This document shows, piece after piece, positions 45,258-56,118 of a stretch of 64,000 nt of DNA. Both the position numbers and the translations under genes were made by a program. Under the pieces are notes generated by a model that was not told the origin of the DNA, ran no database searches, and was given only the letters and a program-made list of their open reading frames with translations. Each line of letters opens with the position of its first letter. Within the stretch, counting starts at the first letter, position 1. This DNA is from Candidatus Latescibacterota bacterium (lineage in GTDB: Bacteria; Latescibacterota; UBA2968; GCA-2709665). The stretch is from contig OZ242358.1 of NCBI GenBank assembly GCA_965208835.1, forward strand, positions 4,672,001 to 4,736,000. The letters run 5' to 3'.

Positions 45258-45302
45258 TGCTGTTCCTCCATCTATCCTTGATTCGTCACTTTTCGGGGCT
45301 CT

Positions 45303-45433
45303 ACGAAACTACGAAAGAGCGAAATTACGAGAAGACGAAACTACGAATTTACGAAAAAGCGGGAATAAATCATCCGTCTACTGGGCTTCTCGTTTATTCG
45401 TCTATTCGTATTCTCGTATTCTCGCCTTTTCGT
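45303..45433. repeat. inverted array of degenerate 8-mers
   Basis: 8 RCGARAHD-like units (45303-45366), 19-nt spacer, 6 inverted units (45386-45433). Confidence 0.85.
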
Positions 45434-45435
45434 CC

Positions 45436-45993
45436 TCACATTCCGTATTCGAAAGTAAGTTCCCTCTTCACGTCCGTTTTCCCGACGCTCTCCCTTAAAT
45501 CCTCCATCATTTCCAGCCATCTGTGTTCCCTGAATTTGCCGAAGTCAAGGACGAGTCCGGGAAGGGCCCTGCTCTCGACGAGGCCGGCCGGCTCCTGGCC
45601 GAGGACTTCAAACTTGCCTCCCCGAAGCTGGTACCACGTCGCCGGTTTACCGTTTTCCAGGAACAATGCCTCCTGGACTCCCGACGCCTCATAGATCTGA
45701 CGTTTCTTGCCCAGGTCCGTGAATCCGTGCTTGGACTCGATCTCCAGTACGAAGTTCGGCGGCCCTTCGTAGACCTGGTGATCGTGGTTTTTTCTGCAGA
45801 TCTGCCTGGGGCCGTTTCTCCGTACGATCACGCCCACGTTCGGATAGACCATACAGTCCGATTTGCCGCCATAGCTGAGTCGCACCGGCGGGAAGAGAAC
45901 GACGTCCATCCCACCGGCTAACATGCGATAGTAGTTGATCACGGTAAGGATGTCGGCGTGATGTCGCGACACATTCGCATCAGGTACCCACAT
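45436..45993 (-). CDS. Uma2-family (PD-(D/E)XK) endonuclease-like protein
   Basis: YEGPPNFVLEI, DLGKKRQIYEASGVQE, SRALPGL; N-terminus looks short. Confidence 0.75.
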   Translation of the reverse strand: MWVPDANVSRHHADILTVINYYRMLAGGMDVVLFPPVRLSYGGKSDCMVYPNVGVIVRRNGPRQICRKNHDHQVYEGPPNFVLEIESKHGFTDLGKKRQIYEASGVQEALFLENGKPATWYQLRGGKFEVLGQEPAGLVESRALPGLVLDFGKFREHRWLEMMEDLRESVGKTDVKRELTFEYGM

Positions 45994-46068
45994 GACTATG
46001 CTCCTTCCACGTCAATTCCGTAAGTGGTCATCCCGTTCCCTATGCGTTCTTTAGCTGGCCGTGCGTCT

Positions 46069-48462
46069 TCATTCGTGGCGCAAAGCTTCTATGGGATTGG
46101 CGCTTGAGGCTCTGAAGCACTGGAATCCGACAACCAGCAGCGTGCCAAGAACAGATCCCAATGCCGTGACAAGAAAGGGGAACAGGCCCATGTTTGCGCG
46201 ATAGGCGAAATCCTGCAGCCAGTCCTGCATAATGACATAAGCGAAGGGCCATGCGATGAGATTGGCGATAAGCACCAGTTTTGTGAACTCGGCGCCCAGC
46301 AGGATCGCGATTTTGCCGATGGATGCGCCGAAGACTTTGCGGATGCCAATCTCTTTGCGGCGGCGCTCGCACGTGTGGGCTGCGAGGCCAAGCAGGCCGA
46401 TAGAGGCGATGAGAAAAGAGACTCCGAATCCAACGGCGAATATGCGCTGGAAGCGCAGGTATTTTTCGTAATTGATCTCCAGCCGGTCGTCGAGAAACGC
46501 ATACATGAACGGACGAACCGGGATATAGGTCTTCCAGATTTCCTCGAGGCCCTGCATGGTTTCACGAATGTTTCCGGCGGCGAGTCGCAGGTTGACCACG
46601 CGAAAGGAACGCGGGCGCAAGACAAAGGCATTGGCGTGGAGTCTTTCGGTCAGCCGACGCATGTGAAAGTCCTCTACAACGCCGATGATCCAGCCCTCAT
46701 TATTGTGAAGTTTAAACGGTTTTCCGACCGGATTTTCAAGTCCGAGTTTCTCCACGGCTGTCTCGTTGAGAACATATGCACTTTCAAAATCACTCTTGAT
46801 GTCAACGGAAAAATTGCGCCCCGCAACGAGATTGACGCCGATCATGCCGAATTGATCTTCGTCAATGGCGTATTGCCGTATCTCGAAAACAGCGCCCGAT
46901 GGATCCAGCACCATTTCCCTTCTGCTGGTCCAGCCTTCGCCCGGAAGGCTGGCGGATGCGGTTGCCGCGAGCACATCGGGGTGTTCGAGAAAGCGCTGTT
47001 TCACTTCGTTGTAAGTATTCCTCAGCGACCCGTCGACGTCGAAGATACGGAGCGCCAGGATGTTTTCTTTGTTGAACCCCAGATCTTTCTTCAGGACATG
47101 GTCGAGTTGGACAAAGGCGACAAGCGCGACGTAAACGAGAAAAACGGAGACGGCAAACTGAAAGATCATGAAAACCCTGCGTGCTAATGATCCGCCGGAC
47201 CCCGTGGCGGTTTGGCTGTGCAATGCGGCAATGGGGGAGACTCGGCTGAGAAGAAAGGCTGGATAGACGCCCGAAAACAGACCGACCAGAACCGTTGCGG
47301 CCACGAGTACAACCGCCATTTGCGGCTCCAAAAATGCAGAGAGCGTATCCGTTTGCCCCACGATATGTTGCCAGTAAGGCCCGGTCATGCCCGTGAGAAC
47401 AAGGGACAGGGGCAGTGCGAGAATGGTAAGCAGGACGGACTCGAGGAGGAACTGGAATGCCAACTGCCGCTGACCTGCACCAACGACCTTTCGCATACCC
47501 ACTTCCTTAGACCGAAGGGCCGCGCGCGCGGTGGAGAGATTGACGAAGTTGATACAGGCGACGAACAAGACGAGCATGCCAATGGACGCGAGGGAGCGAA
47601 CCGCCTTGAGATCGCCGGCGCCAATGCCGGTGCCCGGACCACTGATGCCTTCTGGAAAATCTTCCCGACCATAGAGACGCGTACGCAAGAGCGATTGAAG
47701 GCGATGGCTGGTTGTGTTTTCCGGGTTTTCTTCGGGTATCGCCAGCGCTCGCAATTTCTGTTCGGTTCGTTCCGGGTCGGCATCCTTGCGCAGACGGACA
47801 AAGGTCTGTACCCACCGAAATGACGTGCGGAGTTCCCAATTGGACCAGGCATCGCGGACGCCTGCCGGCAGGGTTGCAGTTACAAAGTGGGGATTGAAAT
47901 GCGTGTTGCGCGGCTGCTCTTCTATAATTCCAGTGACGATGTAATCGCCCCACTGGCCTTCGAGTACCCTGCCCATGGGGTCTTCCCCGGTCGGGAAGAA
48001 TTCGGCGACCGCCTCTTGCGAAAGGACTACGCCGCCCGGTTGCTTTAGCGCTTTGTGGAGATCGCCGCGCTTTAGTCTGATCCCCCAGAATGCGAGATAG
48101 TTGGGATCGGTATACCAGAACGCGCGGCGCTGTGCAAACTGTCGATATCCCACCCAACGATGGCCCGGACGGATGCGGTTGGCAGATTCGATTTCGGCGA
48201 TGGATCCGATCAATTCGGGGGTGAGGGCAGCGTGAGCCTCGATCTGGTAATCCATTTTGTAGGGGGTGGTCAGTTGCCGCAATACCCGATACGTGCGTTC
48301 GGCCCCGGGGCGAAACGCGTCGAAGCCGGTTTCGTGGGCGACGTAGAGCCAAGTCAGGAGCATGCACGCGAGACCAACGCTCAGGCCGAGGAGATTGGCC
48401 AAAGCATACAAGCGATGGCGAATGACGTGCCGGACGGCGACTGTGAAAACGTTGCGTAGAAT
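46069..48462 (-). CDS. MacB/FtsX-like ABC permease (proposed ATT start)
   Basis: ACINFVNLSTAR, KEVGMRKVVGA, KEIGIRKVFGA, WLQDFAYR, NPIEALRHE; family N-terminus (I)LRNVFTVAVRH lies upstream of the ORF-track TTG. Confidence 0.88.
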   Translation of the reverse strand: MLRNVFTVAVRHVIRHRLYALANLLGLSVGLACMLLTWLYVAHETGFDAFRPGAERTYRVLRQLTTPYKMDYQIEAHAALTPELIGSIAEIESANRIRPGHRWVGYRQFAQRRAFWYTDPNYLAFWGIRLKRGDLHKALKQPGGVVLSQEAVAEFFPTGEDPMGRVLEGQWGDYIVTGIIEEQPRNTHFNPHFVTATLPAGVRDAWSNWELRTSFRWVQTFVRLRKDADPERTEQKLRALAIPEENPENTTSHRLQSLLRTRLYGREDFPEGISGPGTGIGAGDLKAVRSLASIGMLVLFVACINFVNLSTARAALRSKEVGMRKVVGAGQRQLAFQFLLESVLLTILALPLSLVLTGMTGPYWQHIVGQTDTLSAFLEPQMAVVLVAATVLVGLFSGVYPAFLLSRVSPIAALHSQTATGSGGSLARRVFMIFQFAVSVFLVYVALVAFVQLDHVLKKDLGFNKENILALRIFDVDGSLRNTYNEVKQRFLEHPDVLAATASASLPGEGWTSRREMVLDPSGAVFEIRQYAIDEDQFGMIGVNLVAGRNFSVDIKSDFESAYVLNETAVEKLGLENPVGKPFKLHNNEGWIIGVVEDFHMRRLTERLHANAFVLRPRSFRVVNLRLAAGNIRETMQGLEEIWKTYIPVRPFMYAFLDDRLEINYEKYLRFQRIFAVGFGVSFLIASIGLLGLAAHTCERRRKEIGIRKVFGASIGKIAILLGAEFTKLVLIANLIAWPFAYVIMQDWLQDFAYRANMGLFPFLVTALGSVLGTLLVVGFQCFRASSANPIEALRHE

Positions 48463-48465
48463 GTC

Positions 48466-50841
48466 TTATTCCCGACTCAAGACATCGACGGGGTTGGTAC
48501 GGGCCGCCGTTCTGGCAAGATGAACAACAGTTCCGACGGCGATAAGGAGCGTGACCGCCACACTGAGAAGGAACGGCCAGACGGTGAGGTCGATCCGGAA
48601 TGCAAAGTTCCGCAGCCAGTTCTGCGTCAACAGAAGGGCAAACGGACACGCAGCCGCCCCGGCCAGGAGTGCGAGCATCGGAAATTCCCGGGCAACCCGC
48701 AACAGGAGATGACCCTCGGACGCCCCCATCACTTTGCGAATCGCAATCTCACGGGTGCGTCGCTCGGCCGCGAATGCCGCGAGCCCCATGGTACCCAGGC
48801 AGGCCAGAAGGACGGCAACAATGGCGGACCGGACGACCAGCGCCCCCTGCCGGGACTCATGGCTGTATTTCGAATCGACGTAGTCGTCGATGTAGAAGCT
48901 GTCGAATGGAACGGTGGGGACAAGCTGAGCCCAGATCCGCATTATGTCCGATAGCGTTTCCTGCTCGCGATCCTCCCTGATCTTCAGATGCAGATATTTC
49001 AGATTCGATCCCGCTGCCGATATCACCAGGGGGACCATGGGCTCTCTCAGCGAGCGTACGTGAAAGTCACGGGTCACCCCGACGACCTGCGCGGGTCGCC
49101 CATGCAGCAGTAGCGCCTGTCCGACGGGCCGGGTCCAGCCCAGTCGTTTCGCGGCTGTTTCGTTAATCAGTACCTCGGTTACGTCGTCCCAATCGGTTGT
49201 CCGTTCGGCGTAAGCCTGCGAGAAATTCCGTCCCGCCAGTAACGGAATATCATAGCAATCGAAAAATGCTTCATTGGCCCGAAACACCCGGGCTTCAAAC
49301 TCGCGGTTCGGCGAATCGACTGGAGATACGAATCGCCGTTTGGGCCAGCTGTGCCCCGGCAGATCCAGGCTCGCCGCGGCCGCTATGATATCCGGATGGT
49401 CCGCAAACCGCTGTTTGACTGTATTGTAGCGGCTGTTCAGCGGGAGCCGCTCGGCATCGGGTCCGAAGATCTTGACGACCAGGACCCCTTTCCGGCTGAA
49501 TCCCAGGTCCCTCGTCCGCACCAGGTCCATCTGCTGATAGACGACGAGCGTGGTCGCAATGAGGACAGTGGATGCCGCGAACTGCAGAATCACCAGGGCC
49601 CGGCGAACCCAGAGGTCCCTCGGGAGTCCGCCGCGCAGGCCCCTCAATATAGCCACCGGCTGCTGGGCGGACAGATAGAGACCGGGGTAGATTCCGGATA
49701 CAAGGCCGGTAATTATGGTAACGACGAGAATCCAGTGAATCTGTTCGACGACGTTGAAGACAAGCGGCTTGCCCATCAGAGTCGCATACTGCGGCAGGAG
49801 CGCCTGCGTCAACCCGATGGATACCGGCAGCGCGGCAATGGTAAACAGAAGGGACTCACACAGGAATTGGCCGACCACGTATCGGCGGTGTGCGCCGGAG
49901 ACCTTGCGAAGGGCGGTCTCGCGGGCGCGAAGGGCCGACCGCGCGGTGGCCAGATTCATGAAGTTGATACACGCGATGATCAGAATGCCGAGACCGAGGA
50001 CCGATAACGGATAGAGATTGCGAACGTCGCCGTACAACATCCCCGAATCACCCTTGAAGCCCTCCAGGTCAATCCTGGAATAAAGGTGAATGCGCGGCAT
50101 GGGTTGGAGCCGGTACGTCGCGCGGCCGGATGCCGTGGGAAACCGGGCGGAAAGCGCCCGCTCGACCGCCGCCGGGTCCGCGCCCGGTTGCAGACGGATA
50201 AAGACAGGCGCCGCCCGGATCGCCCAGTTGCCCGAAGCAAAGCGCGTGACGCTGTCGAACTCAAAGCGCGTATTGGTGGGAAGATCTTCCATTACCGCGA
50301 TGACATTGAACGCCTGAACATGGGTCTCGCGCTGAACTTCCACTGTCCTTCCCACGGGCTCCGCGTCCCCGAAGAGCTTTTCGGCAAGGCTCCGCGTCAG
50401 CAAGATAGACGCGTCCTCCCGCGAAAGCGAGGCGGCGTCTCCGCGAATGACGTCGAGCCCGAAAAAGCCCAGGGCGTCGCCTTCGACGGGACAGAGCCGC
50501 TGGCGAAATATCCGGCCTTCCGCGCGAAACCAGGAGCTGATCTGGCGGTATTGGACCACATCCTCCACCTGGGGATGGTCATTGCGCAAACTCGCGGCGA
50601 CCTTTGCCGGCAGCGCGCTCTGCCACCGGATGCGTCCGCGCTCGTCGATGTTCTTCCTCATGACTCGGTAGACGCGGTCTGCATGAGGACGAAATGCGTC
50701 ATAGCTCATCTCGTAGCGGATAAACAGCATGATGAGCATGGCACAGGTCAATCCGATCACCAGGCTGGCAACGCTGATCGCGGTGTAGGTCTTGTTCCGG
50801 ACCGCGTTGCGAATCGCGACTGTAAGAATGCTGTGAAGAAT
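48466..50841 (-). CDS. MacB/FtsX-like ABC permease (proposed ATT start)
   Basis: ACINFMNLATAR, REIAIRKVMGA, WLRNFAFR, NPVDVLSRE; N-terminus (I)LHSILTVAIRN with GAGG 7 nt upstream. Confidence 0.88.
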   Translation of the reverse strand: MLHSILTVAIRNAVRNKTYTAISVASLVIGLTCAMLIMLFIRYEMSYDAFRPHADRVYRVMRKNIDERGRIRWQSALPAKVAASLRNDHPQVEDVVQYRQISSWFRAEGRIFRQRLCPVEGDALGFFGLDVIRGDAASLSREDASILLTRSLAEKLFGDAEPVGRTVEVQRETHVQAFNVIAVMEDLPTNTRFEFDSVTRFASGNWAIRAAPVFIRLQPGADPAAVERALSARFPTASGRATYRLQPMPRIHLYSRIDLEGFKGDSGMLYGDVRNLYPLSVLGLGILIIACINFMNLATARSALRARETALRKVSGAHRRYVVGQFLCESLLFTIAALPVSIGLTQALLPQYATLMGKPLVFNVVEQIHWILVVTIITGLVSGIYPGLYLSAQQPVAILRGLRGGLPRDLWVRRALVILQFAASTVLIATTLVVYQQMDLVRTRDLGFSRKGVLVVKIFGPDAERLPLNSRYNTVKQRFADHPDIIAAAASLDLPGHSWPKRRFVSPVDSPNREFEARVFRANEAFFDCYDIPLLAGRNFSQAYAERTTDWDDVTEVLINETAAKRLGWTRPVGQALLLHGRPAQVVGVTRDFHVRSLREPMVPLVISAAGSNLKYLHLKIREDREQETLSDIMRIWAQLVPTVPFDSFYIDDYVDSKYSHESRQGALVVRSAIVAVLLACLGTMGLAAFAAERRTREIAIRKVMGASEGHLLLRVAREFPMLALLAGAAACPFALLLTQNWLRNFAFRIDLTVWPFLLSVAVTLLIAVGTVVHLARTAARTNPVDVLSRE

Positions 50842-50889
50842 CCTGGAACCTCGTGGTCTGTCTCCCAGACAGGTCGCCTGGTCAGAACA

Positions 50890-51318
50890 CTAATGTCGTG
50901 CGTTCAGCGCCCGTTCGCGGAGTTCCTCCGCGGTCAGATTCTCCACGCGCGTGGCAATCCACCAGGTGATGCCCTGGCTGTCCTTCACGCCGGCGTTCCG
51001 GTCCCCATAGAACTGGTCCGCGGGCTCCATCAGGGATTCCGCACCGGCATCGAGCGCGGATGCGTAGGACGCATCGGTATCTTCGACGTACATATAAAGC
51101 GCGGCCGGCAGGGGCGGATACCCCTCCTGTGCTGCGCCCATCATGACAACAGAATCCCCAATTCGGACCTCGGCATGCCTGGTGGCTCCGTCCGGGCCGG
51201 GAACGCGTTCGGTCTCTTCAGCCCCGAATGCGGCCTTCAGGAAAGAAATGAGCGCTTCAATATCCTCAACGACGAGATAAGGGGTGATCGTATGGAATCC
51301 AGCAGGTGCAGGTGACAT
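50890..51318 (-). CDS. VOC/glyoxalase (PhnB-like) protein
   Basis: HTITPYL, HAEVRIGDS, DQFYGDR.AGVKD. Confidence 0.9.
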   Translation of the reverse strand: MSPAPAGFHTITPYLVVEDIEALISFLKAAFGAEETERVPGPDGATRHAEVRIGDSVVMMGAAQEGYPPLPAALYMYVEDTDASYASALDAGAESLMEPADQFYGDRNAGVKDSQGITWWIATRVENLTAEELRERALNARH

Positions 51319-51337
51319 GGTTTACCTCCTTTCCAAT

Positions 51338-52141
51338 CTATGATTCCCAAACATAGACCTTCTTGTAGTAGGCGATCTCGAATCCGTTGCGCTGGAGATT
51401 GCCCAACGAAGTCTTCAGCCTGGCAAGCGTTTCACTGCAGGCCGCCCGGCATCCCAGTTCCGCGGCGCGATTCAGGCGCGCCCTGATCAACGCGTTCTGC
51501 CCGCCCTTCTTCCTGTGGTCCTCGGCCGTACCCGCCCAACCGAGATACGCAAAGTCGCCTTCGTACGCGAGTATGGCTGCGCTGACGGGCGCGCCGGCCT
51601 CGTACGCCATGAAGTGCTCGAATCCGGTCTTTTCGACGCTCTCGAAGAAGAATGAACTTGGCCAGGGATCGAAAATGCGCAGAATCGCATCCTTCCGGCT
51701 CTGTACCTCAGCCCGGGATACGCGGCGCACGTCAAGTGGGGTCTTGAAAGGCGCCAGGGGTTCCACGGAACGAATCAGCGTCGGATACGTGGACCCCTTG
51801 AATGGTTTGAGGCCGCTGCCCCGCAGCCACCCGCTGATTTCCTCTATCTGGGGATTCGGGCTCAGCCAGAAGAAAAACCGCTGAATCTCCGATTTTCTGA
51901 ACAGATCCAGGACGTTCAGGAAGTCGTTGTGGGAAACCTTCGTCCGGCATCCGAAGAAAAACACGCCGTTCCGATTCGCCGATGGATACGGCGATGCAGC
52001 GGAAGGAGGATCCAGTGTGACGACGGCGGTTTCGGAAGGCACCTGAATGCTCGAATCGAGCGGAGCGCAGTCGAGTTGCCTATGCCTGATCGCGATTAGT
52101 CGCCGCGCAATCTCATCCGGTTTCATCTCGGCGGGGAACAC
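51338..52141 (-). CDS. GNAT acetyltransferase-like protein
   Basis: AYLGWAGT...[14 protein letters not shown]; S..NLQRNGF; overlaps the uvrA end. Confidence 0.78.
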
Positions 52142-55014
52142 GAATTCCCTTCCAGTTGCGGCCTGAGAAACTGACCGGTATATGACTCGCCGACCGCGGC
52201 CACGGCCTCCGGCGGGCCGGTGGCAATGACGTCGCCTCCGTTGTGTCCGCCCTCGGGGCCCAGGTCGATCACATAGTCGGCGGTCTTGATCACGTCGAGG
52301 TGATGTTCGATGACCACAACGGTATGCCCGGCGTCGACGAGGCCATTGAGCGCGTCGAGAAGCTTCTGGATATCCGCCAGGTGCAATCCGGTGGTCGGCT
52401 CGTCGAGAATGTATAGATTGTGTTTGCCGCGTTTGATCTTGCCGAGTTCGCTGGCGAGTTTGATGCGCTGCGCCTCTCCGCCGGAGAGGATGGTGGCCGG
52501 GTGGCCGATTTTCAGATAGCCCAGGCCCAGGTTGTCGAGCACGGCCAGTTTGTGGGCAATGAGGTTGTTTCCAGCAAAGAACGCGACACCCTCTTCAATG
52601 GGCATGTTCAGGACGTCGGCAATCGTCTTTTCCCGGTAGGTGACCGCCAGTGTCTCGTCGTTGTAGCGTGCGCCCTTGCAGGTTGGACAGGGTATGGAAA
52701 CGTCGGGCATAAAGGCGAAACTCGTCTTGATCTCGCCTTCGCCGGCGCACTCCTCGCAGCGGCCCCCCTTGACGTTGAAGCTGAATCGGGAGGCGGTATA
52801 GCCTCGTTCCCTGGCTTCGCCGGTGGATGCGAAACACTTGCGAATATTGTCGTAAAATCCGATGTAGGTGGCGGGATTGGACCGTGGAGACCGGCCGATG
52901 GCGGACTGGTCGATGTTGATGACGTCTCCCACGTGTTCGTGGCCTGAGAGCTCATCGTGATCGCCGGAAAAGACGCGGCTGTCGTGAAACAGGTTGTATA
53001 GTTTCTTGTAGAGCACTTCGTGAACGAGGGTGCTCTTTCCCGATCCGGACGCGCCGGTGATACACGTAAAGATCCCCAGCGGAATCTCGACGTCGATGTT
53101 GTTAAGGTTGTTCGCGCGCGCGCCTCTGATACGAATCACCCTGGCGTTCTTCTCGCGTCGCTGAGGGGGAACGGCGATTGTTATGCTCCCGCTCAGATAT
53201 TGCGCGGTTGGCGATTCCCGACACTTGAGAACGTCCCTGAAAGGACCTGCTGCGACAACGCGGCCGCCATGCACTCCGGGACCGGGACCCATTTCAATGA
53301 TGTGATCGGCGGAGCGGATGGTCTCCTCGTCGTGTTCGACGACAATGACCGTGTTGCCGATGTCTCTAAGGCGCCTCATGGTGCTGATCATCTTGACGTT
53401 GTCTTTGGGGTGCAGGCCGATACTGGGTTCATCCAGAACGTAAAGCATGCCCATCAGCCCCGAGCCGATCTGGGTGGACAGGCGAATGCGCTGGGACTCG
53501 CCGCCCGAGAGCGTGCCGGTAGGGCGATTAAGGTTGAGATAGTCCAGGCCGATGCCGATCAGGAGCTCGAGACGGGACGAAATCTCGTGGATGATCTGTG
53601 AGACCACCTCCTTCTGTTTCGCAGGGACGGCGAGCTCCGAGAGAAAGCAAAGCAGTTCCGGGAGATGCATTTCACCGAGACCGTGGATGTTGTGATTGTC
53701 AATTGTGACCAGAAGGCGCTGTTTCTTCAACCGCTCGCCGCCGCAGTCCGGACACCGATTCTCAACCATGGTCTTGCGCAGATAGTCTTCCATGCCCCCG
53801 TGCGCCACGCCCTTCTGCCTGTATCGGCGGTACTGGCGTTCGATCTGGTTGATGACGCCGTCGTAACGAAACTCGCGCCCGATGTATTTCGCGCCGACCT
53901 TGGCGTCCGGAGGCTGTTCGATGACCACGCTTTCGCCGCGCGTCCCGTAGAGAAGCAGGTCCCTTACGTCGTCGGACAGATCCTTGTATGGGGTATCGAG
54001 GTCGAAGCCGTATTTCCTGGACAGGCTGTAGAGGATGCGCCCGCCCCAGGTATTGACATCGTACTTCAGCGCTTCCTTTACGAACGCGCCCTCCCGCAGA
54101 CTGCGGTCCTTGTCGGGGGCGACCAGGTCGGGGTGCGCTTTGAGATAGGTACCGAGGCCGGAGCATGTCACGCAGGCGCCCGCAGGGTCGTTGAACGTGA
54201 ACATCCCGTGATGCATGCGGCCCGCGACGACGCGTGCGGAGGAGGCACCAAGCCTTCGGTGGAACGTATCGACCGCTGTCTTGCCGATATCGGAGAGAAC
54301 CCGGAAACTCAGGAACCCCTCGCCAATGACCTCGAGCCCGTGCGTGAGGGACGTGACGATCTGTTTGTCGAGGCCTTCGCGTACAAAAAAGCGGTCCACG
54401 ATCACTTCGATCCGGTAGTCTTCGTTTTCATCGAGATCGATTTCCTCGCTCAGGTCATTAGCCTCTTCGTCAATACGCACCCGGCGGTAACCCTTGGTGC
54501 GAACGTCGTCGAAGAGGTAGGCGTAGTCCTCGCCATAGATCTTGAGAACCGGTGCGCAAACTTCGACCTCCGCGCCGTCCGGCAGGGCGAGCAGGTTTTC
54601 CATCATCTGATGCGGTGTCCATACCTTGACTTTCTCGCCGGTGACCGGACATCGCGGCTGTCCGATATTTGCAAACAGCATTCGCAAATAGTCTGAGAGG
54701 TCCGTCATCGTCCCCACGGTCGAGCGGGGATTCTTCATCACGGTCTTCTGTTCAATGGACACGACCGGAGAAAGGCCGTTCACGAAGTCGACGTCGGGCT
54801 TCTTCAGCTGGGAGACGAATCGCCGGGCGAAGGTGGATAGCGATTCCATGAATCGCCGCTGTCCTTCGGCATACACGGTATCGAACGCGAGGGAGGATTT
54901 CCCTGAGCCGCTTACGCCGGTGACAACGACCAGCTTGTCGCGAGGGATTTCGAGTTGGATATTCCGCAGGTTGTTTTCGCGGGCGCCCTTGACTTCAATG
55001 GTGGATCTCATCAA
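52123..55014 (-). CDS. uvrA: excinuclease ABC subunit A (possibly a secondary paralogue)
   Basis: [59 protein letters not shown]. Confidence 0.93.
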
Positions 55015-55024
55015 TGGCCTCGGA

Positions 55025-55202
55025 ACAAAACTACGAGACTACAAAACTACGAGACTACGAGACTACGAAGGAACGAAAGAGCAGGAATACACCAGACATT
55101 TTTCGCCTCTTCATCTCTTCGTCTATTCGTATCCTCGTTTTTTCGTATTTTCGCTTTCTCGTATTCTCGTCTATTCGTATTCTTGTCTATTTGTCTACTC
55201 GC
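55025..55202. repeat. inverted array of degenerate 8-mers
   Basis: 8 units ACRARACT-like (55025-55088), 10-nt spacer, 13 inverted units (55099-55202). Confidence 0.85.
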
Positions 55203-56118
55203 CATCGTAGTAATAGGCGGGTTCTTCAACTTCAATCCGGCTCTTCTCGGTCAGGTGAATGGGGCTCGAAAGCTTCTGGATGACTTCCTGCCCTACGAGC
55301 CATTCGCAGGCCGCTTCAAGGCCGCCTCCCTGGATCTTCTTCCGGAAATAATCGTTGATTTCCGAGAGTTTGCGTACTTCTGACGATTCCTCGAGGTAGT
55401 CCAGCAGCGGGAGAAAGAGGTCCGGCGTCCTTTCCTGGAGATAGCGGTTGACCAGATCGAGTACACGTTTGACGGATTCGTGGGTCTTGGGTTGATTTAC
55501 AAAGTCCGTGTAGACGGCGTTGAACAACTCCGGATTGTACCTGAGCGCCTGATGGACCACTTCCCGGCCCGGCGCCTCGTTGTGAAGGAGCACCTGGATC
55601 GATGCGAGATCCCGCACGACCTGCATGAGCCACCAGAAGCTGTACTCGAAATCCTTCTTCAGGTAGAAGTACTTTTCCGCTTTGTTGAGCGACGGTATCA
55701 GAAAGATCGCGTGTCTCAACAGCTGGAATGACCGGTCCCGGGTTCCGATGTGATCGATGGCATCGTACCACTTCGCCACGGAATCGTCTTTGGTGAAAAG
55801 AAGCGTGCTCTTCGAAAACGTAAAGTCCAGCCACCCGCCGGCGAGGTCGCCTTCGATTCGGCGTTTGAAGACGCCGCGGGGAATGCGTTGCGCCTGGATG
55901 TTGACGTCGTCTTCACAAAGTGTTACATGTCCTTCTTTCACCCCATCCTGCATGATGATCCACAGATCGATATCCGAGTTCACCCAGACTTCGTCGTAGG
56001 ACAGACTCCCGAACAGAATCGCAGCGAGTACCGTCCGGTCGTTTTCGAGTTTTCCGACCAGAGACGAAAGCGCGCCCCGGTAATGTTTCCGGATTTCATC
56101 AGGCGTCGCAGCAGACAT
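55195..56118 (-). CDS. Pol-beta-superfamily nucleotidyltransferase domain protein
   Basis: ILFGSLS...SDIDL; helical C-terminal region. Confidence 0.78.

Follow-up and report, generated by a model that had tools for sequence, protein, structure and literature searches.

Two adjacent permease genes of an uncultured marine bacterium, Candidatus Latescibacterota bacterium, appear to begin at ATT rather than at a canonical start codon. The genes, here called p1 and p2, lie in tandem on the minus strand of the DNA analysed (the window, 64,000 nucleotides, positions 4,672,001 to 4,736,000 of contig OZ242358.1), which belongs to a genome of a single 5.18 Mb contig (G000) whose nearest relative is genome G011. 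We think it probable that both genes are functional, that they are translated from a near-cognate AUU inherited from the ancestor of their genus, and that p2 is fed in part by reinitiation. The absence of canonical starts, the conservation of the start position, purifying selection and the geometry of the p1-p2 junction support this account directly. An earlier note on the window had drawn attention to both starts, and the start-region sequences, the spacing of GAGG ahead of p1, the junction and the shared frame all read exactly as it described.

48466-50841, minus strand: p1, a duplicated MacB_PCD+FtsX permease, 791 codons plus TAA counted from ATT, an open frame
46069-48462, minus strand: p2, a duplicated MacB_PCD+FtsX permease, 797 codons plus TGA counted from ATT
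48460-48468, minus strand: p1-p2 junction, TAA-GAC-ATT (p1 stop, 3-nt spacer, proposed p2 start)
48470-48473, minus strand: GGGA, Shine-Dalgarno (SD)-like, within the last p1 codons and 7 nt before the p2 ATT (AGGA in most relatives)

For p2 there is a strong case that ATT would be the only plausible initiation codon. The junction reads GAA-TAA-GAC-ATT-CTA-CGC-AAC, with the TAA at 48468-48466 and the ATT at 48462-48460, p1 and p2 share a frame, and no ATG, GTG or TTG lies between the p2 ATT and the in-frame TAA one codon upstream. The layout of TAA, 3 nt and start recurs in 11 of the 13 p2 loci of the genus, where the sole codon separating the stop from the start position is GAC, GGC or TTC, none of them capable of starting translation. 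Twelve of the 13 loci are free of any upstream canonical codon, the other being that of genome G003, whose p1/p2 hybrid gene has a TTG four codons upstream. Codon 1 itself is ATT in 9 of these loci, ATC in 3 and ATG in 1, and the ATG, found in genome G012, marks the position as a start. The SD-like motif overlaps the p1 coding sequence, and its conservation is therefore not independent evidence. A hairpin that can be drawn at the junction folds no better than shuffled sequences (z +0.92), and its stem is broken in relatives with a TTC spacer or with a 5' arm reading GAC.

50839-50841, minus strand: ATT, the proposed p1 start, reading ATT-CTT-CAC-AGC
50849-50852, minus strand: GAGG, SD-like, with a 7-nt spacer to the p1 ATT, also present in G011
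50890-50892, minus strand: TAG of the glyoxalase/VOC-family gene upstream, the previous in-frame stop, 16 codons before the p1 ATT

For p1, ATT is, judged from the sequence, the best initiation codon in this genome. The stop of the VOC gene lies 48 nt before it in the same frame, and from the ATT back to that stop (50892-50890) there is no ATG, GTG or TTG, as the earlier note had stated for both genes. By a six-frame codon score, the coding signal in p1 begins exactly at the ATT. The 3' end of the 16S rRNA of this genome carries CACCUCCU, the usual anti-SD, and ATT with GAGG at 7 nt appears to be the only p1 start candidate common to G000 and its nearest relative. A CTG at -9, which the earlier note had named as another place where initiation might map, was rejected since G011 has CTC there. 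The 48-nt VOC-p1 spacer is confined to G000 and G011 and contains a small hairpin (GUCUG-GGAGA-CAGAC, 50853-50889, minus strand); in G011 both arms are changed yet pairing is kept (CCGUC...GACGG). The fold of this p1 leader hairpin is no better than that of shuffles (z -0.51).

Orthologues conserve the start position, and the codon there is exchanged solely for other start-capable ones, in p1, in p2 and in the sister family alike. Codon 1 of p1 is ATT in all 10 same-genus loci, and it is ATG in 9 and GTG in 1 of the 10 sister-family p1 orthologues, which share 61-65% protein identity. A sequencing error at either ATT was ruled out by this conservation, which extends across 10 genomes for p1 and 13 for p2; besides, contigs of four independent studies span both starts, and no start-codon difference occurs among the 40 listed of 152 differences; the earlier note had asked for the reads to be verified. 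The rest of the family looks different. A whole-genome tblastn search found 11 full-length paralogues, and in the 9 others the codon aligned with residue 1 is ATG (8) or GTG (1), ATT being confined to p1 and p2. A wider survey covered 124 family N-termini from 79 loci of other genomes, 122 of them outside the genus, with ATG in 111, GTG in 3 and ATT in 3; two of the latter are same-genus orthologues (L047) and the third is followed directly by an ATG codon. Outside the genus, ATG or GTG stands at the aligned codon in 114 of 122 members and a clear ATT in none; six more have a canonical codon at most 4 codons away (5 plus the case of ATT followed by ATG) and two are unresolved. Because the other paralogues and the family at large carry ATG or GTG there, ATT at this position in p1 and p2 is more than chance.

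Both genes are also under purifying selection. The 9 full-length same-genus p1 orthologues are 83-94% identical, with a dN/dS of 0.16-0.20 against each of the 8 other species, and the 12 same-genus p2 orthologues (11 full length) are 85-94% identical, with a dN/dS of 0.13-0.18 against the 11. Taken together, the pairwise comparisons with this genome give a dN/dS of 0.13-0.20 at a dS of 0.16-0.54, with no broken frame and no internal stop, and even the closest pair, G000 and G011, has an omega of 0.14-0.17 at a dS of 0.16-0.18. Within codons 1-27 the family N-terminal motif is kept in frame in every orthologue, and it is mainly for this reason that we take codons 2-27 to be translated. Given the conservation of ATT in orthologues and the low dN/dS, neither sequencing error nor decay would account for these loci, and we regard p1 and p2 as functional genes. 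The earlier note had named ATG in orthologues together with decay of these copies as an outcome that would overturn its reading; what we find is ATT in all p1 and most p2 loci of the genus and constrained coding sequences behind it.

These observations lead us to infer that AUU is the codon at which ribosomes actually start, that p2 is coupled to p1 and that output is low. In this scheme, the AUU of both genes, which the ancestor of this Latescibacterota genus would already have had, would be decoded as methionine by the initiator tRNA. Initiation on p1 would be weak and directed by its own GAGG 7 nt upstream, and p2 would draw on two sources, ribosomes fresh from terminating on p1 (termination-reinitiation) and weak de novo initiation, the outcome being a low output with p2 tied to p1. 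Partial coupling of p2 to p1 is probable because its AUU lies 3 nt past the UAA and an SD-like GGGA or AGGA occupies the last p1 codons; the distance of a few nucleotides between stop and start that termination-reinitiation calls for is found at p2 in 11 of 13 loci. At p1 the distance from the VOC stop is too long here (48 nt), and it is 8 nt in 7 of the 10 same-genus loci, in which the VOC gene ends in CAY-TGA. The distribution of the genes argues against a strict coupling of p2 to p1: in genome G008 the ATT persists although p1 is reduced to a remnant, and in G003 and G007 the hybrid gene still has ATC.

Several observations weigh against this account. A search for RNA runs found none listed. 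The locus is unstable within the genus, four genomes having lost p1, one p2 and one both. The p2 gene retains its ATT in G008, where there is no p1 beyond the remnant to feed it, and behind a decayed VOC gene the hybrid found in G003 and G007 still has its ATC. In most relatives p1 has only a weak SD-like motif upstream of the ATT. Four codons upstream of the p1 ATT, overlapping the VOC stop, there is a CTG in 4 of 10 loci and a TTG in 2 of 10, and p1 in those species might start there instead. More broadly, p1 is free of upstream in-frame ATG, GTG and TTG in this genome and 5 others of the 10 loci, while G011 has a GTG at -12 and G013, G001 and G005 have a TTG or GTG. In codons 2-27, pN (0.03-0.20) is below pS (0.05-0.33) in most comparisons and about equal to it in a few. 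Finally, a check for selection on the T of ATT gave no support, its conservation being no stronger than that of ordinary Ile ATT codons: among all-Ile columns that are ATT here, ATT is kept throughout in 4 of 10 for p1 and 1 of 5 for p2. The proposal that both genes start at ATT stands for p2, where no other codon is plausible, and for p1 in this genome, where it is the best candidate, and is weaker for p1 in the species with an upstream CTG or TTG.

Whether the weak codon has been actively selected, through IF3-sensitive dampening or as a start that serves only coupling, or is merely tolerated is a refinement of this account, and selection seems to us possible and on balance rather unlikely. 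In its favour, ATT or ATC has persisted through the radiation of the genus in two genes, and ATC in a third, an MFS transporter described below (12 of 14 loci); third-base changes stay within AUH except for one ATG, in a lineage without p1; and the SD followed by ATC in all 24 infC relatives examined fits IF3 autoregulation in this lineage. Against it, the p2 start underwent three third-base changes (to C in G002 and again in the ancestor of G003 and G007, to G in G012, each time from T) on a tree of about 0.65 substitutions per site, close to the neutral rate, and the p1 start shows zero on its tree; only 2 of the 11 paralogues are affected; and G008 retains ATT without an intact p1. Deliberate translational dampening, suggested by the earlier note, is possible and, with the T of ATT free of visible constraint, unsupported in the form in which it was put, and the extension of the idea to control of an expanded permease family does not agree with the confinement of ATT to two of its members. 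A bolder version, that AUU or AUC 3-8 nt past an upstream stop is a recurrent habit of this genus and marks 'coupling-only' starts, is doubtful. If true, such starts would serve mainly ribosomes fresh from an upstream stop, and several membrane transporters would be made in proportion to translation of the preceding gene and never without it: p2 following p1, p1 following the VOC gene (in most species) and the MFS transporter following an ion-channel gene. It would amount to the thrS-infC geometry applied to ordinary cargo genes.

50758-50760, minus strand: GTG, codon 28 of p1 and its first canonical in-frame codon, within the first membrane helix; rejected as a start
48409-48411, minus strand: TTG, codon 18, the first canonical in-frame codon of p2, found in only 3 of 12 orthologues; rejected as a start

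Of the explanations that dispense with AUU initiation, translation from these downstream codons, with the codons before them an untranslated leader, survives best and is nonetheless quite unlikely. All 9 p1 orthologues have the GTG at codon 28, and canonical codons initiate far better than AUU, according to the available part of the work on the E. coli thrS-infC junction (PMC3592434). However, the Val encoded by GTG 28 is conserved and sits midway through the first membrane helix (approximately residues 20-41), and MacB_PCD, a Pfam model that begins with this helix, aligns from residue 20 of p1 and from residue 22 of p2. In p2 just 3 of 12 orthologues have the TTG at codon 18, and for 5 of 12 the first canonical codon is an ATG at codon 34, again inside the first membrane helix. 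Moreover, codons 1-27 keep the family N-terminal motif in every orthologue, and the coding-score boundary falls at the ATT. The observation of the earlier note that starts assigned by open reading frame (ORF) would cut at or into the first helix is borne out by the position of GTG 28.

That p1 and p2 are silenced copies heading for decay, the start mutation being tolerated through redundancy of the family, is very unlikely. The 9 other paralogues and the fast turnover of the locus, with the losses listed above and a VOC gene decayed in several species, would favour it, but 9 p1 and 12 p2 orthologues have unbroken frames of about 790 codons and a dN/dS of 0.13-0.20, the closest pair included. 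Least probable of all is the read-through alternative of the earlier note, in which the TAA would be read through or bypassed to give a fused double permease of about 1590 residues with ATT as an internal Ile codon: all 11 loci that carry the junction have both genes in one frame, divided by a single TAA, ATT-to-ATC changes would be synonymous and the N-in, C-in topology inferred for each half would permit fusion, but the spacer codon is radically variable (Asp, Gly or Phe), p1 ends at a family-typical C-terminus, p1 persists without p2 in G001 and p2 persists with p1 deleted or decayed in G003, G007, G008 and G012, the p2 start codon is ATG in G012, and the ATT of p1 is left unexplained, the VOC stop being in another frame in 7 of 10 loci.

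Returning to initiation at AUU, its presence in both genes likely goes back to a single ATG-to-ATT change that spread between the 5' ends of p1 and p2 by gene conversion. Overall p1 and p2 share only about 33% identity; their first 30 nt match at 20-25 of 30 positions, and the next 60 nt at 24-28 of 60. Codon 2 is CTA in all 12 full-length p2 genes and in 7 of 9 p1 genes, and CTA accounts for 2.1% of Leu codons in this genome's long ORFs. Recombination inside the common 5' tract deleted p1 in G003 and G007 and left the p1/p2 hybrid gene (loci L027 and L028). One origin is likely because of the homogenised tract, the shared rare CTA and recombination within the tract, and this weakens the earlier argument that two divergent paralogues sharing ATT point to deliberate control. 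Convergent selection on the start regions may be an alternative to gene conversion. Remnants of p1 of 200-600 nt persist in the lineage of G008 and G012 (loci L029 and L030), and VOC genes with internal deletions occur among the decayed ones. G012, the sister of G008 and likewise without p1, is the one species with ATG at the p2 start, which fits compensation for the loss of p1, as a single event.

52123-55014, minus strand: uvrA, upstream of p1 at a distance of 1.3 kb that holds two small genes
51338-52141, minus strand: GNAT-like gene
50890-51318, minus strand: glyoxalase/VOC-family gene upstream of p1 (Pfam Glyoxalase, E 4.5e-11)

The two permease genes form part of a tight minus-strand row that runs uvrA, GNAT-like gene, VOC gene, p1, p2, Uma2-family gene and ankyrin-repeat gene. 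No transporter ABC ATPase or adaptor (membrane-fusion) gene was found among 15 neighbouring ORFs scanned, in agreement with the earlier note; uvrA has ABC domains but its role is that of a DNA-repair gene, and the scanned neighbours also include a helicase and a nucleotidase. Over 45300-55400, a promoter scan gave 1 promoter-like site against 3.4 expected, and a terminator scan 10 terminator-like sites against 8.5 expected. Each permease has two MacB_PCD and two FtsX domains (Pfam E-values 1e-19 to 1e-30) in one chain of about 800 residues, the duplicated architecture of the acidobacterial duplicated orphan permeases (ADOP). With the ADOP model TIGR03434 they score 249.3 and 241.1 bits, far under the curated NCBIfam cut-off of 622.3, and they are ADOP-like proteins outside the ADOP subfamily TIGR03434. 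The p1 relatives that carry names are Candidatus Latescibacterota metagenome-assembled genomes.

G000:C1:99282-100547, plus strand, outside the window: MFS transporter with an apparent ATC start (loci L133 and L145)
G000:C1:1872660-1873200, minus strand: infC, without ATG (locus L124, relatives L165-L187)

A genome-wide screen for other non-canonical starts yielded one additional supported case among 25 candidates sent to Pfam, the MFS transporter. A codon-score filter returned 145 ORFs with at least 12 coding-like codons ahead of the first canonical start; p1 came 17th in the ranking, and p2, with too short a pre-start stretch, escaped the filter. Fifty-three ORFs had a pre-start score of at least 4, and of the 20 submitted to Pfam (19 of the top 20, p1 being left out, and one lower-ranked) only the MFS gene has a domain that begins before the first canonical codon. 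A second scan, for in-frame tandem ORF pairs, gave 335 pairs and five further AUH candidates, for which Pfam was uninformative. The MFS start reads TAG-CCG-ATC, where the TAG ends an ion-channel gene, 3 nt separate it from the ATC, and GGGAGGA stands ahead of the start; the Pfam domains begin at residues 10 and 24, and the first canonical codon is residue 31. Codon 1 is ATC in 12 and ATG in 2 of 14 same-genus loci. Four sister-family genomes have their MFS and p1 orthologues no more than about 2 kb apart.

In infC, all 24 relatives examined carry GGAGGTGATC, a 10-nt perfect complement of the 16S tail, followed by 3 nt and then ATC-AAY. The infC start is probably this near-cognate ATC, as in other bacteria; a GTG inside the SD may be an alternative start. 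Many of the ORFs in the screen have coding-like sequence that extends up to an in-frame TGA, which fits a selenoprotein-rich genome. Such TGA-adjoining ORFs on G000:C1 include those at 4401330 (selD-like), 2174722 (thioredoxin-like, TGA-CCG-ACC-TGC), 784544, 2365620, 3772196 and 3046847. The selD-like frame at 4401330 opens directly past its TGA, with AIRS domains downstream, and we take this TGA to be at the position expected for selenocysteine. At G000:C1:1557538 (plus strand) the coding signal resumes past an in-frame TGA and the N-terminal sequence resembles release factor 2; this TGA is probably the usual prfB +1 frameshift site.

Near-cognate starts are a rare but known bacterial way to keep output low or tied to the preceding gene, and initiation at AUU or AUC is already known for infC and for E. 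coli pcnB. The p1 and p2 genes are a well-supported addition to the known AUU/AUC-start genes, and they call for no new mechanism. Gene callers limited to ATG, GTG and TTG would give proteins of 764 and 780 residues in place of 791 and 797, removing the first membrane helix, or might flag both genes as broken, and the same mis-calling is to be expected for the MFS gene. The cases reported here add conserved examples of AUU/AUC initiation outside infC from an uncultured phylum, and they let the stop-NNN-AUH junction of E. coli infC be seen to recur in unrelated genes. The natural series of ATT, ATC and ATG, with and without the upstream gene, would suit the study of near-cognate starts and reinitiation.

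Our literature searches, which were not aimed at proving absence, found nothing on near-cognate starts in this permease family or phylum. The closest parallel is the E. coli thrS-infC junction, which reads UAA GGU AUU; in the available part of that report, reinitiation and de novo initiation contribute about equally in reporters, and AUU gives six- to eight-fold less than AUG (PMC3592434). A further source, likewise available in part, discusses IF3 in connection with reinitiation, and non-canonical restarts if 70S ribosomes remain on the mRNA (PMC2268962). The p1-p2 junction resembles thrS-infC in having a UAA, a 3-nt gap and AUU (here UAA GAC/GGC AUU), with an SD-like motif within the end of the upstream gene. 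It differs in that the product is a membrane permease and not IF3, so that there is no autoregulatory loop, and in that the two genes at the junction are paralogues of each other. An ATT start with lowered output shown has been described for ebpA of Enterococcus faecalis (PMC4447247) and an ATC start for Deinococcus dnaA (PMC2830850), in both cases going by the part of the source available. As in pcnB, ebpA and dnaA, the proposed near-cognate start of p1 and p2 is conserved in relatives and the downstream canonical start is probably wrong; the differences are that two adjacent paralogues are concerned and that the start stands next to a stop codon. Finally, p1 and p2 share with ADOP, in addition to chain length and domain duplication, many paralogues and the lack of an adjacent ABC ATPase gene; they are set apart by the low TIGR03434 scores and by their nearest relatives, which are found in Latescibacterota, Bacteroidota and Ignavibacteria.

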